DNA from: Candidatus Aminicenantes bacterium
GTDB lineage: Bacteria; Acidobacteriota; Aminicenantia; UBA2199
Direction: 5' to 3'
DNA length: 64,000 bases
Assembly (NCBI GenBank): GCA_963759765.1
Contig: CAVXAL010000002.1
Location: 621,710-685,709 of the forward strand
Shown: positions 6,995 to 16,486 of the stretch, piece after piece
Position numbering within the stretch: position 1 is the first letter of the stretch
How the letters are laid out: each line of letters starts with the position of its first letter
Program-made: the position numbers and the translations under genes
Notes under the pieces: generated by a model
Database searches by the model: none
What the model was told of the DNA's origin: nothing
Seen by the model: only the letters and a program-made list of their open reading frames with translations

Positions 6995-7070
6995 TTTCCC
7001 TTTAACAGAAAGGCCCGGCCTTGTCAATGCGGCCGTTTCTGTACTATAATGAGCCTTCCAGGAGGCGAGA

Positions 7071-8269
7071 TGAACCTCTCTCTGCGTGCCCGCGAAATTC
7101 AAGAGTCACCAATCCGCAAGTTGAATACCCTGGCCAACGAGACCAAGAAACGCGGCATCACCGTCTACCACCTCAACATCGGTCAGCCGGACATTCCCAC
7201 GCCGGAAAACTTCTTAAAGCGAATCGCCGCGTTCCCGGAAAAAGTGCTTTCCTACGGCCCCGCCGACGGTCTGGAGACGCTTAAAGATGCCATGGTCCAT
7301 TATTTCTCCTATTATGGAATTGGCCTGGAAAAGAAGAATATCGTCATTGCCAATGGCGGCAGCGAGGCCATTTCCTTCGCCTTCAACGTGGTGGCCGATC
7401 CCGGCGACGAGATCATTCTGCCCGAGCCTTTTTACACCAATTACAACGGCTACGCGTCGCTCTGCAGCCTGAAGCTCGTGCCGGTGACCACCCTGGCCGA
7501 AAAGGGGTTTCACCTGCCGCCGCTGTCCGAATTTGAGAAACGGGTCACCCCGCAAGACCCGGGCGATTCTCCTCTGCTCGCCCAACAACCCGACCGGTAC
7601 GGTGTACCGCGAAGATGAGATCAGGGCTGTGGGGGAGTTTGCCAAAAAGCACGACATCTACCTGATTGCCGACGAGGTATACAAGGAGTTCACCTATGAC
7701 GGCAAGCGTCATTTCAGCGTACTGCAGCTGAGCGGGCTGGAGGACCGCGTCATCGTGGTCGACTCCATCTCCAAACGTTATTCGGCGTGCGGCGCTCGTA
7801 TCGGGGCGGTCATTTCCCGCAACCTCGAGGTGATAAAGTCGGATCACCAAATTCGCCCAGGCGCGGCTCTGCCCGCCGACCCTGGAGCAAGTCGGGCGCC
7901 ATCGGCGCTTACGAGCTGCCGCTCTCACTATTTCAAGACGTCATGGCCGAATACCAGAAGCGCCGCGATATTCTGTACGGCATCCTGACCTCAAGAAAGG
8001 ACGTCATCCTGCAGAAGCCCGAGGGCGCTTTCTACATCATGGCCAAGCTGCCGATTGATGATTGTGATGATTTTGCGCGCTGGCTGCTGGCCGATTTTTC
8101 CGATAACAACGAGACGGTGATGGTCGCGCCCGGGGCAGGCTTCTATGCCACGCCCGGCAAGGGCAAGAACGAGGCGCGCTTGGCCTATGTGATCGAGGCG
8201 CCCAAGCTCGAGCGCGCCGGCCTTATTTTGCTCAAGGCTTTGGACGCCTACGGAAAAAGGGGAAAATAG
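7071..8269 (+). pseudogene. class I/II PLP-dependent aminotransferase (aspartate aminotransferase-like) interrupted by two frameshifts
   Basis: Three ORF fragments (6944..7618, 7533..7988, 7787..8269; frames 2,3,2) join into one colinear ~399-aa aminotransferase (GQPDIPTP, SPNNPTGTVY, SKRYSACGARIGAV). Shifts near 7548 and 7880 look like single-base indels in C/G runs. Confidence 0.75.
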
Positions 8270-8330
8270 GGAAACAACTTTTGCTTCGCTTCTTATCTCC
8301 CCAAATTGTATTCTTCTGAGGAGGCTTCAC

Positions 8331-8996
8331 ATGAAAAAGTATTTTGGGTTTGTTCTGGTTCTGATTTTAGCTTTGACTCTTGTCGCCGCCGAACAAACAC
8401 ACAAAGTGGTCATTGTCCGGGGAGGGTCCAGAGCGATGGCTGTGCCCATCCAGGCTTTGTCCTTTTCGAAAGCTTTTTCCCAGAAAGCCGCGATCAAACC
8501 CCGGTTTTTTTCTGCGGGAGAAAAATTGAAAATCCTTCAGGAGGCCAAGATCAATGAGGTCAATGGTGTTTCTGCAGCCGCCTGGAAGGTGACCCTCAAA
8601 TCGCCCAACATCAACGACCGAATGTTTATCACGCTGAGCCAGCCCAATTTCGTTTCCACAGAATTTTATGGCACGGGCGTGGCTTTGTTTGATAACAGCG
8701 ACCAATTTTACAAAGCCAATGGAACAGACAAGGCTTTTAATTTGGACTTTTTTGTTGAAGCTGGCAAATGGTATTTGCTCGATTGCGCGGTCAGCGAAAC
8801 CGATGCCACCTACCGGGTGTTTGTTTATCAACAATCGGGTTCTTCGCAGATCACTTTTGAGAATCCTTCGGACGGGCACCTTTTGATCGTCCTGCAGGCC
8901 ACTGCCGCCGGTCAAGCGTATATTGCTGTCACGGGAAATTGCCCCCGCCAGGGTAATTGGGGCATTTACGGAGCCGAAATCACCGTCATCAAATAA
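8331..8996 (+). CDS. secreted hypothetical protein (cleavable signal peptide)
   Basis: MKKYFGFVLVLILALTLVAA signal; RBS GAGGAGG upstream; no recognisable domain. Confidence 0.5.
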   Translation: MKKYFGFVLVLILALTLVAAEQTHKVVIVRGGSRAMAVPIQALSFSKAFSQKAAIKPRFFSAGEKLKILQEAKINEVNGVSAAAWKVTLKSPNINDRMFITLSQPNFVSTEFYGTGVALFDNSDQFYKANGTDKAFNLDFFVEAGKWYLLDCAVSETDATYRVFVYQQSGSSQITFENPSDGHLLIVLQATAAGQAYIAVTGNCPRQGNWGIYGAEITVIK

Positions 8997-9047
8997 GCCC
9001 TTACTTTCAGGTCTACAACCCGATCGAGTGTTGGCTGCTGAAATTTA

Positions 9048-9064
9048 AAATTTTTTAAAAATTT
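9048..9064. repeat. left copy of island-flanking direct repeat (aaattttttaaaaattt)
   Basis: Matches 10739..10754 (aaattttttaaatatt) at 15 of 16 positions; candidate attL/attR or target duplication. Confidence 0.4.
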
Positions 9065-9071
9065 CTTAAAA

Positions 9072-9455
9072 CTACGGCTTAATATGAAGAACCGAGCTCT
9101 CCGAAAGGTGTATTGCCTTCAGCAGTATTTCTGATTCATTAGATGGCCATCCAATAATATTAGTATGACGTTTTGGGATATTATCTGGATCCAATTTTAA
9201 GCAACAACTATAAATTGAAGATGCGGTTATATCAGCGCGTGCTTTTAAACTACTTGGTCTATTTTTCTCAACTTGAACTCCTATTAACCATATTGCGCTT
9301 TCAGACAAGTCGTATATTCTAAAAACTGACAATTTCTTATTTTGAGGCGGCATGAAGGCACGATGCTTAACACAGTTATTTTCTGAACTAAAATCTTTTT
9401 TTGAAAAAAGAAATCTTGATAGTTTTTCAGATGCTTTGATTTGATGATTATTCAA
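9072..9455 (-). CDS. hypothetical protein (island gene 3, 127 aa)
   Basis: AT-rich ORF; start 1 nt after stop of gene 2; no family recognised (..KHRAFMPPQNKKLSVFRIYDLSESAIWLIG..RHTNIIGWP..). Confidence 0.5.
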   Translation of the reverse strand: MNNHQIKASEKLSRFLFSKKDFSSENNCVKHRAFMPPQNKKLSVFRIYDLSESAIWLIGVQVEKNRPSSLKARADITASSIYSCCLKLDPDNIPKRHTNIIGWPSNESEILLKAIHLSESSVLHIKP

Positions 9456-9456
9456 A

Positions 9457-9942
9457 TTAAAATCCCAACCTTTTAAAATTTTCTATTATTACTGGTGGCA
9501 ATGCGTTTTCGAAATATTCATTCCCATGAATCTGATTCCCCCCAAATATTCCCGCATATTTAATAATTTTTGTATTCCCAATATTTATTATAAAAATTCT
9601 ATTTCTGTCCTTCCTCCATTCAAATCCCACATCTCCATTTGGTTCGATACAAATTTCAGGGAATGGAATAAAGGATGGTATAAGATTTAGAAATTTTTTA
9701 GCTTCAAAGTAAGCATCAATGGATAAGGGTTTGGCTCCCTCTCCATCCCAATCTTCATTCTTACATTCAATTTGTAACTTTTTTAATTCATAAAGGATTT
9801 GATTAAGAAACAATTCGTTAGATGTCTTGTTCTTCCAAATTGGTTTATTTTCATAAATCTTTTCATCTTTGGAGCTTGTACAACTTTGATAACTATTGAT
9901 ATTATAGCATATAGGTGTGGAGCATATAGCTGGGGTGCTCAT
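9457..9942 (-). CDS. hypothetical protein (island gene 2, 161 aa)
   Basis: AT-rich ORF; its ATG overlaps stop of gene 1 (ATGA); Cys-rich N-terminus CSTPICYNINSYQSC; no family recognised. Confidence 0.5.
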   Translation of the reverse strand: MSTPAICSTPICYNINSYQSCTSSKDEKIYENKPIWKNKTSNELFLNQILYELKKLQIECKNEDWDGEGAKPLSIDAYFEAKKFLNLIPSFIPFPEICIEPNGDVGFEWRKDRNRIFIINIGNTKIIKYAGIFGGNQIHGNEYFENALPPVIIENFKRLGF

Positions 9943-10685
9943 ATAAATAACTCCTTTAATTTTTCTGTTATTAAAGAGAAAAAAATTCTATTTTTGAAAT
10001 TTCGTAACCTTTCAAATAATTCCCAAGCTTCGTTATTTTCAAAAAATTCTTTATGTTTAAATACATCTATATCCAGCATTATTGGACAATACCTTGGATC
10101 AACAATCTGTTCGAAGACTTGAGTGATAATTGCTGTAATTCCGGTATCTGGTTCTTCAATTACAACTTTATTAAAGAAACTATTTACTCCTTGTGGCAAT
10201 TCTTTTGGAATAATCGGCGCTGCTGTTAAATACTCATTAAAATCAAGCAATGGTTGCGGATATAAAGGAATACTAATTTTATTTATATACCTAACTGCAA
10301 CTCTTATGATTTCAGGATTTACTAAATCTCTATATATCTTCCAAATTCTATAAGCCTCATCTCTAAGATTCTCCCAGCATTCATAAGGGTTTAACCGATT
10401 AAAAGTAAAGCCATCTATTCTTGTTTGGACAATCTGCTTTTTATCAATAGTTCTAAACCAATACCCTTTTAAAGTTTCTGAACTTGTCGATAAAGGTTTT
10501 AAATCTTTTTTTAACTCAAGCTTACTTTCAAATTCAATTGCCTCTGTTTTTTCTGGATATTGATTTTTTATTTTTTCGTGAATAGAAAGAAATTGTTTCA
10601 CATCAAAATCACTTTTCAACTTTGTCTTTAAATCAATTAATGCTTCATAAATCGGAGCATTATTAAGATGAGCTATCTCTGCCAC
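9939..10685 (-). CDS. hypothetical protein (island gene 1, 248 aa), possibly TIGR04255-like uncharacterised family
   Basis: GTG start at 10685 with GAGGAAAA SD. N-terminal LNNAPIYEALIDL and central RVAVRYINKISIP resemble my recollection of TIGR04255 proteins; unverified. Confidence 0.5.
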   Translation of the reverse strand: MAEIAHLNNAPIYEALIDLKTKLKSDFDVKQFLSIHEKIKNQYPEKTEAIEFESKLELKKDLKPLSTSSETLKGYWFRTIDKKQIVQTRIDGFTFNRLNPYECWENLRDEAYRIWKIYRDLVNPEIIRVAVRYINKISIPLYPQPLLDFNEYLTAAPIIPKELPQGVNSFFNKVVIEEPDTGITAIITQVFEQIVDPRYCPIMLDIDVFKHKEFFENNEAWELFERLRNFKNRIFFSLITEKLKELFI

Positions 10686-10707
10686 TTTTCCTCACATTTT
10701 TTATTTT

Positions 10708-10737
10708 ATTATAGCAGCACTCAATCTTTTTTCTCAA
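10708..10737 (-). promoter_or_regulatory. candidate sigma70 promoter for the island operon (TTGAGA-18-TGcTATAAT)
   Basis: Read on minus strand between purA stop and island gene 1; extended -10 TGn. Confidence 0.35.
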
Positions 10738-10745
10738 TAAATTTT

Positions 10746-12020
<1,275 letters not shown>

Positions 12021-12029
12021 GGCGGGTCG

Positions 12030-13281
12030 CTATTTCACCTTGATGATCAGCACGGTGAAGTCGTCGCGGAATTTCCGCTTGTGGGAGAACCCGCGGATCT
12101 TGCGGTAAAGCCCGGCGGCAATATCGGGGGCCGTGTTCAGGCGGTGGCTCTGGATGTAGTGGAGAATGCCGATTTCACCGAACTCTTCCCCTCGCGCGTT
12201 CTCCACTTCGTGGACGCCGTCGGTGAAAGCGATGATGATGTCGCCGCTTTTCAGGGGCATGGTGCTCTCTTCGTACGTGGCCTCCTCGCTGAAACCCAGC
12301 AACAGACCGCCCGGAGCAAGTTTGTGTATCTTCTGACCGGAGAGCACGATGGGGCTATAGTGGCCGGCGTTGACGTAGGTGATGGCCGGATTCTCGTCAT
12401 CGAGCAGTATCCAGAGCAGGGTGATGAAGTGCATACCCCGGGTGATCTCCAGAATGAGGGAGTTGGCCTTCTGGATGAACTTGGCCGGCTGAAACAGATA
12501 GAGTTCGTTGAGGGTGTGAAAAACCGCTTGGGCGGAGCTGGCCAGCAGGGCGGCCGACAGCCCCTTACCCTCGACGTCGGCCAACACCAGCGGCTGGATA
12601 TTTTTTTTCTTTTTCGGGATATCGTAATAGTCTCCGCCCACTTCTTGAATAGGGATGTAGATGACCCCGATGTCGTAGTGTCGCATGTCGGGCATGTGCT
12701 GGGGCAGGAGCGAAAGCTGAATGTCGCGGGCGATGGACAGCTCGTGTTCCAGGCTTTTTTTCTCGATGATCTGCTGCCAGGTAGTGGATATTGTCCAGGC
12801 CGATCGAGCAGAAGCGCGACAAGAAGAAAACGAATTCCTGTTCTTCGTGCTCAATTCGCTGCGGAATTGAACTTTTGGCCCAGGCCGAGAATAATATTTT
12901 TCTTCTTGTTCTGGGAGAGGCTGAGCAGGTAATAGATCTCTTTGATTCCAACAGGTCGCGGAGCGGGCGCGCGTCCTTGTTGAGGTCAGCCACTTTCAGG
13001 CAGGTGAAGGGCGCCACCTCATTCTGGACGTTTCGTTTCAGGTACTGCAGCTCCTGGGGGGCGATGCAAAATCCTTTTTTGCGGAATGTGCCGGAGTTCT
13101 TGTCGAAGAAAAAGGCCCGGGAGATGCCCATGGGCGCCATCAGGATGGAGAAGAAGATGCGCAGGATGTCGTCGACCTGCGAGGAGGAATGGAGAATGGA
13201 GGAAAGTTCATAGATGGAATTCAGCTGCAGTTTTTTGAAGCTGAGTTCCCTGCGCAGGTGGCTCAGATCGATTTCTGCCAT
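12030..13281 (-). pseudogene. GAF-domain PP2C-type serine phosphatase (RsbU/SpoIIE-like), one frameshift near 12790
   Basis: ORFs 12565..13281 (GAF part) and 12030..12854 (PP2C part: DIQLSLLP, GDYYD, GKGLSAAL, DGV.E) overlap in different frames and are colinear. Confidence 0.7.
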
Positions 13282-15562: not shown

Positions 15563-16486
15563 CTAACCGGTGGAGCCGCTCTTGCGGCTGCGGGGGTGAT
15601 AGCGGTCGTACGCCTTGCGCACCTGGTCCTTGGCCACATGGGTGTAGATTTCGGTGGTGGAGATGTTGGCGTGCCCCAGCAGCAGCTGCACGGAGCGCAG
15701 GTCGGCTCCTTGTTCCACCAGGTGGGTGGCAAAGGAGTGGCGCAGCATGTGGGGCGTCAGCACACCGCCGAGCCCGGTTTTTCTGCCGTAGGCCTTGATG
15801 ATTTTCCAGAGTCCCTGGCGTGTCAGCGGCCGGCCGCTGGGATTGAGAAAGACCGCATCACTTCGCTCCTTCTTGAGCTGCCGGGGCCGGCCGTTTTGCA
15901 GATAATCCCGCAGGCAGGCTTCCGCTTTCGGGCCGAAAGGCACGATCCGTTCTTTGCCGCCCTTGCCCCGCACGCGCAGGAAATTTTCCTCTAGGTACAC
16001 CTGCTCCAGCTGCAGCTGGGCCGCTTCCGAAACGCGCATGCCGGTGGCGTACATCAGTTCGAGCAGCGCCTTGTCCCTTTTGCCGGACGCGCTCCCCGTG
16101 TCGGGGCTTTCCAGCAACCGCAGCACTTCTTCTATGGTCAGGTATTTGGGAAGTTTGTGCCATTTTTTGGGCAATGCCAGGGTAGCGGCGGGATTGGTCG
16201 CCAACCGCTCCTCGGCAACCAGGTAACGGTAAAAACTCTTCAGCACCGAAATCAGATGGGCCTGCGACGACACTGCCCGGCCCTGGCGCGCTTCCTCTTT
16301 CAGGAAGCCGAGGAGCTCGTTGGCAGTGAGCGAGAGGAAATCCAGGCGCTGTTTCTTCAGGTGTGAAAAGAATTTTTCCAGTTCCTGGCGGTAGGAGAGA
16401 GCGGTGTTGAGAGCCAGGCCGCGCTCGACTTCCAGGTGGAGGAGGAATTGACCGACAGCAGTGGGCAGGATCGGTTTTTCGCTCAC
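15563..16486 (-). CDS. tyrosine recombinase XerC/XerD family
   Basis: ALLELMYATGMRVSE, HMLRHSFATHLV, LLGHANISTTEIYTHV catalytic blocks; 307 aa. Confidence 0.85.
   Translation of the reverse strand: MSEKPILPTAVGQFLLHLEVERGLALNTALSYRQELEKFFSHLKKQRLDFLSLTANELLGFLKEEARQGRAVSSQAHLISVLKSFYRYLVAEERLATNPAATLALPKKWHKLPKYLTIEEVLRLLESPDTGSASGKRDKALLELMYATGMRVSEAAQLQLEQVYLEENFLRVRGKGGKERIVPFGPKAEACLRDYLQNGRPRQLKKERSDAVFLNPSGRPLTRQGLWKIIKAYGRKTGLGGVLTPHMLRHSFATHLVEQGADLRSVQLLLGHANISTTEIYTHVAKDQVRKAYDRYHPRSRKSGSTG

Follow-up and report, generated by a model that had tools for sequence, protein, structure and literature searches.

A foreign three-gene islet at the 3' end of purA in a Candidatus Aminicenantes genome, and the short A/T repeat at its borders

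Hotspots that lie between core genes and show no detectable mobile element have been documented in Escherichia coli (PMC10121019), and hotspots of defence islands between core genes have been mapped in Pseudomonas aeruginosa (PMC10250203). A further described class, the cis-mobilizable elements (CIMEs), consists of decayed integrative and conjugative elements (ICEs) or integrative and mobilizable elements (IMEs) which keep both attL and attR and have lost their integrase and transfer genes (PMC5704250). Here we examine 64,000 nucleotides of a Candidatus Aminicenantes bacterium (contig CAVXAL010000002.1 of assembly GCA_963759765.1, positions 621,710 to 685,709; "the window" is this whole 64-kb stretch, and positions refer to it unless another contig is named), in which a short AT-rich islet of three genes directly follows purA, the gene for adenylosuccinate synthase, and carries a copy of an imperfect direct repeat at each of its borders. 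Judged by its sequence, the islet is foreign DNA that was horizontally acquired by a GC-rich genome. It encodes no recognizable mobility protein and sits in a slot whose content differs between relatives, and we tentatively favour an explanation in which the repeat is incidental to its acquisition.

The locus resembles the integrase-less hotspots in that its cargo lies between core genes (purA and an aminotransferase gene), in that the content of the slot differs in each relative, and in that no mobility gene can be identified. It resembles the defence hotspots in that the same gene module is accompanied elsewhere by restriction-modification, Fic, GmrSD and toxin-antitoxin genes. Unlike the hotspots of E. 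coli and P. aeruginosa, however, it is seen here against five distant relatives (63–69% purA identity) and not against a species pan-genome, and unlike the mapped hotspots its cargo is a single 1.7-kb operon with a putative anti-phage role, whose module is not among the known systems of PADLOC. With CIMEs the islet shares a recombinase-less segment flanked by direct repeats at the 3' end of a conserved gene, this end being restored in the proximal repeat; unlike CIMEs, it has no known cognate integrase or related ICE/IME, and its repeat is an all-A/T string of 12–16 nt of marginal significance. It is also far smaller than the CIMEs known to us, being trimmed to one operon. The first of its genes is clearly a member of TIGR04255 (an NCBIfam family labelled "sporadically distributed", with no known function), to which the present analysis adds a constant linkage to two small partners.

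The islet and the variable slot behind purA

The GC content of the islet is 0.27–0.35 against a window mean of 0.575, and its edges are sharp, at about 9041 and about 10757 (Table 1). Its three genes overlap or abut one another, and the promoter in front of them, located just after the purA stop codon, is the top promoter-like site in 8800–11000; it is followed by GAGGA and then by the GTG start codon of gene 1. In homologous modules from other contigs (see below), TATAAT lies at the same distance from the start codons as in the islet. A homologue search with the gene 1 protein returned 739 sequences, among which the closest non-self ones are 61–62% identical, so the low-GC donor is unsampled. 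A search for similarity to plasmid DNA found none, and a search of phage proteins gave a single distant match, to a Ralstonia phage (29%). As a separate observation, a low-GC patch at 34.2–34.7 kb was considered as a second islet and rejected, as its sequence looks like an ordinary small gene with an intergenic region.

Table 1. Coordinates of the islet, its repeat copies and the adjoining genes in the window
Feature	Position	Strand	Remarks
AT-rich foreign islet, ~1.7 kb	9041..10757	-	one promoter, three tightly packed genes, short trailer; same direction as purA
Left (purA-distal) repeat copy, aaattttttaaaaattt	9048..9064		within a 24-nt all-A/T run, 9041-9064
Right (purA-proximal) repeat copy, aaattttttaaatatt	10739..10754		within a 19-nt all-A/T run, 10736-10754
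Sigma-70-type promoter of the islet operon	10708..10737	-	TTGAGA, 18-nt spacer, TGcTATAAT; 11/12 matches, extended -10
Gene 1, TIGR04255-family protein, 248 aa	9939..10685	-	NCBIfam TIGR04255, 8.4e-34
Gene 2, 161 aa, no named family	9457..9942	-	conserved C-terminal WDG.GA...GFEW domain
Gene 3, 127 aa, no named family	9072..9455	-	conserved PP..LSVFRI and H.NIIGWP motifs
purA (adenylosuccinate synthase)	10746..12020	-	PF00709 1.6e-164; NF002223 541 bits; 3' end overlapped by the right repeat copy
Lipoprotein-like gene, 221 aa	8331..8996	+	far side of the islet; lineage-specific; part of the variable slot

The junctions are reproduced in an independent assembly of the same sample. In the Logan assembly of run ERR10755944, one contig (L083) spans 7940–10856 of the window (2917 nt), including both islet junctions and both repeat copies, with 5 substitutions and 0 indels; this agreement across the junctions means that neither they nor the homopolymer lengths are the product of a chimera or an assembly error. 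We therefore consider it extremely improbable that a low-complexity repeat led to a chimeric join of low-GC DNA and a GC-rich contig. The frame changes seen in several conserved genes of the window do suggest an error-prone assembly, but a repeat of 12 nt does not have the length to mislead an assembler, and the second assembly has both joins.

The islet lies in a slot that turns over. The gene order NDK, STAS, HATPase, SpoIIE-like, purA, [slot], aminotransferase, (SecA or AI-2E), RlmN is kept in the relatives L081, L002, L106 and L109, and the slot between purA and the aminotransferase gene (8997–10745 in the window, 4904–5731 in L081, 3194–4711 in L002, 6282–7167 in L106, and 6264–6799 in L109) holds mutually unrelated genes, of 243, 283, 187 and 142 aa, in the relatives. 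In the window, the slot content is the 221-aa lipoprotein-like gene and the islet. Since each of five genomes has an unrelated gene in it, the slot is variable, a hotspot of gene turnover in this lineage. The lipoprotein-like gene has no family match and is unrelated to the slot genes of the relatives. Because its GC content (0.45–0.53) is under the window mean and no family could be assigned to it, this gene may have been acquired into the slot at an earlier date.

The islet was inserted at the 3' end of the conserved purA gene, whose reading frame is completed within the right repeat copy. As the first-pass annotation had read it, this copy encodes N-I-stop: purA ends H-R-N-N-I-stop, and the last two codons and the stop codon lie inside the repeat (Asn at 10752–10754, Ile at 10749–10751, stop at 10746–10748). 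The protein is full length (424 aa, vs 420–426 aa in most relatives). Its end, AAT-ATT-TAA, lies in an A/T tract and stands out from the codon use of native genes (in those of the window, Asn is encoded by AAT in 28% of cases and Ile by ATT in 20%, and about 20% of stop codons are TAA). The three closest purA relatives end ...HRGA, and in the five relatives compared at the DNA level the last purA codons are GC-normal, the stop codon is TGA or TAG, and there is no A/T tract at that place. Outlier codons here and GC-normal ends in relatives fit a purA end supplied by foreign, or at least atypical, DNA better than an A/T core that was already part of the native gene. Beyond the conserved ...QTI(H/K/R)R, the purA tail runs from zero to many residues and varies in both length and sequence among relatives.

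Judged by the best purA matches, the lineage is Aminicenantes/Acidobacteriota-like. The closest purA homologue in a search of 5.8 billion proteins shares 69% identity, and genome contigs gave at most 61%. The repeat motif does not occur at the purA stop in the relatives compared, which are too distant to count as empty sites: at 69% identity for the best of them, and with different genes in the slot, they are not usable for this purpose. An exact look-up with purA found no match, and look-ups with the lipoprotein-like gene and gene 1 found only one Logan contig, from the same sample, so that a single sample is known to hold this organism.

Some features of the surroundings are recorded here for completeness. 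In Candidatus Aminicenantes UBA876 (L001, 2700–2830), tandem units similar to GTTGGAGA/GTTGGAAA run through the purA end and beyond it, and purA of this genome has a 15-residue repetitive tail from the tandem array. The aminotransferase gene of the window (7070–8251, plus strand), compared with its L002 orthologue, reads successively in frames 2, 3, 1 and 2, and the SpoIIE-like phosphatase gene (12030–13281, minus strand) has a single frame change near 12760; these frame changes are either indel errors of a long-read assembly or signs of pseudogenes.

The repeat at the islet borders

According to the first-pass annotation, imperfect direct repeats of 16–17 nt stand at the edges of the island, and both strings do read as reported. 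The two copies have an exact core of 12 nt in common, AAATTTTTTAAA, and agree at 15/16 nt in ungapped alignment. The core occurs exactly twice in the 64-kb window, at 9048 and 10739; with one mismatch allowed, the extra matches are overlapping variants in the left tract only. Shuffling of the whole window gives an expectation of 0.31 hits. The copies lie one each in all-A/T runs of 24 nt and 19 nt, the longest that the window contains, and native all-A/T tracts outside the islet reach at most 15 nt. The motif is near-palindromic, so that both tracts can be aligned as an inverted repeat as well (14/16).

Both copies occupy the sole non-coding pieces of the islet, each of which is an all-A/T tract. 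The left copy lies 8–24 nt downstream of the gene 3 stop codon, in a trailer of 31 nt. A terminator at this place was rejected, because the RNA fold of the surrounding region does not surpass that of shuffles (z = -1.3 to -1.4) and the site search called nothing terminator-like. The right copy abuts the islet promoter, beginning 1 nt upstream of the -35 hexamer, and by this position it could correspond to the UP element of the promoter.

How far the repeat exceeds chance varies with the null model that is chosen. Mononucleotide shuffles of border zones of 30–80 nt gave p = 0.0003–0.0015, but such shuffles break up the runs of A and T that are typical of AT-rich non-coding DNA. With dinucleotide-preserving shuffles, taking both borders as all-A/T tracts, p rose to 0.03 (direct orientation) and 0.05 (either orientation). 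An empirical null made of 134 real all-A/T tracts of 18–30 nt from unrelated loci gave 0.018 for at least 12 nt exact in direct orientation, 0.035 in either orientation, and 0.007 for a match of 15/16 or better. In the 1.8 kb scanned at 9000–10800 there are 4 distinct pairs of repeated 12-mers including the border pair, one of which reaches 13 nt. Taken together, the repeat is suggestive at the 1–5% level and not compelling. The first-pass annotation had allowed for the motif being a frequent AT-rich low-complexity string that matches by chance; frequent it is not (two copies in 64 kb), although it is an all-A/T, near-palindromic string, whose chance match has a probability of about 1–5%.

We note a 22-nt all-A/T tract, ATTTTTTAAATAAATATTTTTA, in the relative L002 (3321–3342), about 130 nt downstream of purA. 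It has the 11-mer ATTTTTTAAAT in common with the right copy of the window, in opposite orientation relative to purA. This similarity is probably low-complexity chance; the tract shows that native A/T tracts can occur in the intergenic region downstream of purA.

Mobility genes and possible routes of insertion

Using Pfam, NCBIfam, PHROG and PADLOC, we found no recombinase or transposase among the islet proteins, in agreement with the first-pass statement that the island has no integrase. The Xer-type recombinase at 15563–16486, which had been taken for a chromosomal gene, is indeed the housekeeping XerD by its equivalog score (349.3 bits vs the 329.6-bit cut-off of TIGR02225), and the relative L106 (66% purA identity) has a Phage_integrase-family gene (1–95) with the same neighbours, PBP_like_2 and NDK. 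No second tyrosine recombinase was revealed in the window when XerD was used as a tblastn query, and searches for tRNA or tmRNA genes and for Rfam families found none. With up to 2 mismatches allowed, the conserved XerD arm TTATGTTAAAT is absent from the borders, its hit counts being those of chance, so there is no dif-like site of the kind that marks integrative mobile elements exploiting Xer (IMEX). The integron core GTTRRRY is found on neither strand at 9000–9110 or 10690–10800; an integron gene cassette was rejected on this ground and because the islet comprises three genes and a promoter of its own. Apart from the palindromic A/T tract, the two ends show no inverted similarity to each other; without inverted ends and with no transposase in the islet, it does not have the make-up of an insertion sequence (IS), a miniature inverted-repeat transposable element (MITE) or another non-autonomous transposon.

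The explanation that we prefer, with somewhat less than even confidence, is that the repeat is incidental and that acquisition was recombinase-independent or of the hotspot type. A small operon from an unsampled low-GC donor would have been acquired recently, into the naturally variable slot behind purA, and the foreign DNA would have overwritten, or would now supply, the last two or three codons of purA together with its stop codon. Loss of the native purA end would be harmless, because neither the length nor the sequence of the tail after ...QTI(H/K/R)R is constant anyway. Insertion would have taken place without a recombinase of the islet's own: recombination would have been illegitimate, or else homologous recombination between the core genes on either side would have exchanged the slot, as in integrase-less hotspots. 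The flanking A/T repeat would then not be an att site, and would have arisen as a by-product of the all-A/T tracts upstream of the -35 hexamer and in the trailer, the islet's two sole non-coding ends being such tracts. This explanation is favoured by the low complexity of the motif, the promoter position of one copy, the lack of the repeat around other copies of the module, the lack of mobility genes, the further 12-mer pairs within 1.8 kb, the atypical purA tail and the variable content of the slot. What the first-pass annotation had proposed as site-specific integration thus stands as far as the foreign islet at the purA 3' end, the missing integrase and the chromosomal Xer gene are concerned, whereas its duplication of an att site is unproven.

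Several points weigh against an incidental repeat. Little foreign DNA is present beyond the operon itself: 17 nt precede the -35 hexamer, 31 nt follow the stop codon of gene 3, and fragments of neighbouring donor genes are lacking. Such tight trimming is predicted neither by random illegitimate recombination nor by the decay of a larger island. A restored 3' end of a gene is a classic signature of site-specific integration. A match of 12 nt exact and 15/16 overall, placed exactly at both compositional borders, has a probability of only about 1–5% under realistic nulls, and the border pair is the sole exact pair of this motif in 64 kb. Furthermore, no island-free variant of this organism was found (best purA identity 69%).

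Much of this would be expected if the repeat were a true duplication of an att core (attL/attR), i.e. if a CIME-like element or a minimal cassette had entered the purA 3' end site-specifically, carrying a surrogate N-I-stop tail, with its recombinase encoded elsewhere in the genome or lost. The direct repeat at both borders (p about 0.007–0.05 under realistic nulls) and the completion of the purA frame within the right copy argue for it, and tight trimming to the operon suits a dedicated cassette. CIMEs are a described class that keeps attL and attR after loss of integration and transfer genes (PMC5704250). In addition, one copy of the module in IMG/VR (L104, 4526–5950, minus strand) lies 1.3 kb from an open reading frame (ORF) of 474 aa that resembles a large serine recombinase, by its N-terminal motif only. 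On the other hand, the islet has no recombinase and the window only the housekeeping XerD; around the other copies of the module we found no flanking direct repeats of at least 11 nt within 900 nt, and the repeat motif was not found at any other module locus. An att core would also require a native all-A/T string of 16–23 nt at the purA stop, but native tracts in the window are no longer than 15 nt and the five relatives are GC-normal there; the codons AAT-ATT-TAA are disfavoured by native codon use; and the motif is of low complexity and matches nearly as well when inverted. We consider a true att duplication possible, though on balance unlikely. It would predict an empty site with the junction ...ACCATCCACCGAAACAAT(A/T)TTTAAAAAATTT joined to TAAATTTCAGCAGCCAACACTCG, and an excised circle with the junction ...TAGTTTTAAGAAATTTTTAAAAAATTT joined to ATTGAGAAAAAAGATTGAG.

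The same 12 nt, identical at both ends, could also be a target-site duplication, left by a non-autonomous element on which a transposase had acted in trans. Many transposases favour AT-rich targets, and a DDE transposase gene is found near the homologous module L087. Yet terminal inverted repeats are missing inside the repeats, where the A/T tract itself is the sole inverted similarity, the islet is without a transposase, and this explanation, too, calls for a native all-A/T target at the purA stop, which is unlikely. Moreover, a duplication of 12–16 nt is long for the known transposase families. We consider a target-site duplication very unlikely.

The three-gene module and its other contexts

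The gene 1 protein matches the TIGR04255 model with 117.5 bits (cut-off 30) over residues 7–247 of 248. Its AlphaFold2 (AF2) model has a predicted local distance difference test (pLDDT) score of 88.7; a Foldseek search gave no match among solved structures in PDB, and weak matches to viral structures only, CYTH and TBP-like proteins among them. Gene 2 has a widespread C-terminal domain, matched by 3158 cluster representatives at E<=1e-3. Gene 3 is 41–48% identical to the third gene of four other modules; its homologue search returned gene 3 alone, and its single-sequence structure model (pLDDT 35) is of no use. Sequence searches of Pfam, PHROGs and PDB with the islet proteins gave nothing or weak matches, and no relative in them was found for genes 2 and 3. 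In PADLOC-DB 2.0 there is no match for genes 1 and 3 and the module is not a known anti-phage system; gene 2 and its four homologues (5/5 module copies tested) show a weak match to the PADLOC candidate PDC-M32A (best E = 0.0015). In a literature search for TIGR04255 we found no paper that mentions the family.

The same trio is present in the same order in 8 other independent contexts, that is, in all contexts examined (L084/85, L086, L087-96, L097-100, L102-105), with identities of 31–48% for genes 2 and 3 across modules. The module lies beside type I restriction-modification and Fic genes in L084/L085; beside Fic, an HsdS-like gene and a PIN gene in L086; beside a DUF433/PIN pair, a Macro-domain gene and a DDE transposase gene in L087-L096; and beside GmrSD in L097-L100, from an Aminicenantales metagenome-assembled genome (MAG); L102-L105 are four IMG/VR (viral) contigs. 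Such gene neighbourhoods suggest that the trio may have a role in defence or one similar to that of toxin-antitoxin systems. We note that run ERR10755944, which contains the islet, carries a second copy of the module, 61% identical (L085, equal to L084 5001–6641), on a contig from a different organism of lower GC content, where type I restriction-modification and Fic genes are its neighbours.

A bolder proposal can be made, namely that the islet is a minimal mobile cassette without a recombinase of its own (a promoter, three genes and an A/T core of 12–16 nt) which a recombinase acting in trans moves into A/T tracts at gene ends, in this case rebuilding the purA stop codon, and that its cargo, the TIGR04255 trio, is an undescribed defence or stress system spreading in this way. 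We regard this as speculative and quite unlikely. On the explanation that we prefer, in which the repeat is incidental, the islet would be an ordinary recent horizontal acquisition into a variable chromosomal slot, and the locus is a caution that att sites are weakly supported where a GC-rich genome has an AT-rich islet bordered by a short all-A/T repeat. If the att core were real, the islet would be an unusually small cassette from a little-studied phylum, mobilized in trans and aimed at a housekeeping gene's end. The TIGR04255 trio, which recurs on viral contigs and in the company of restriction, Fic, GmrSD and toxin-antitoxin genes, provides a testable three-gene candidate system for a family that so far has only a number.

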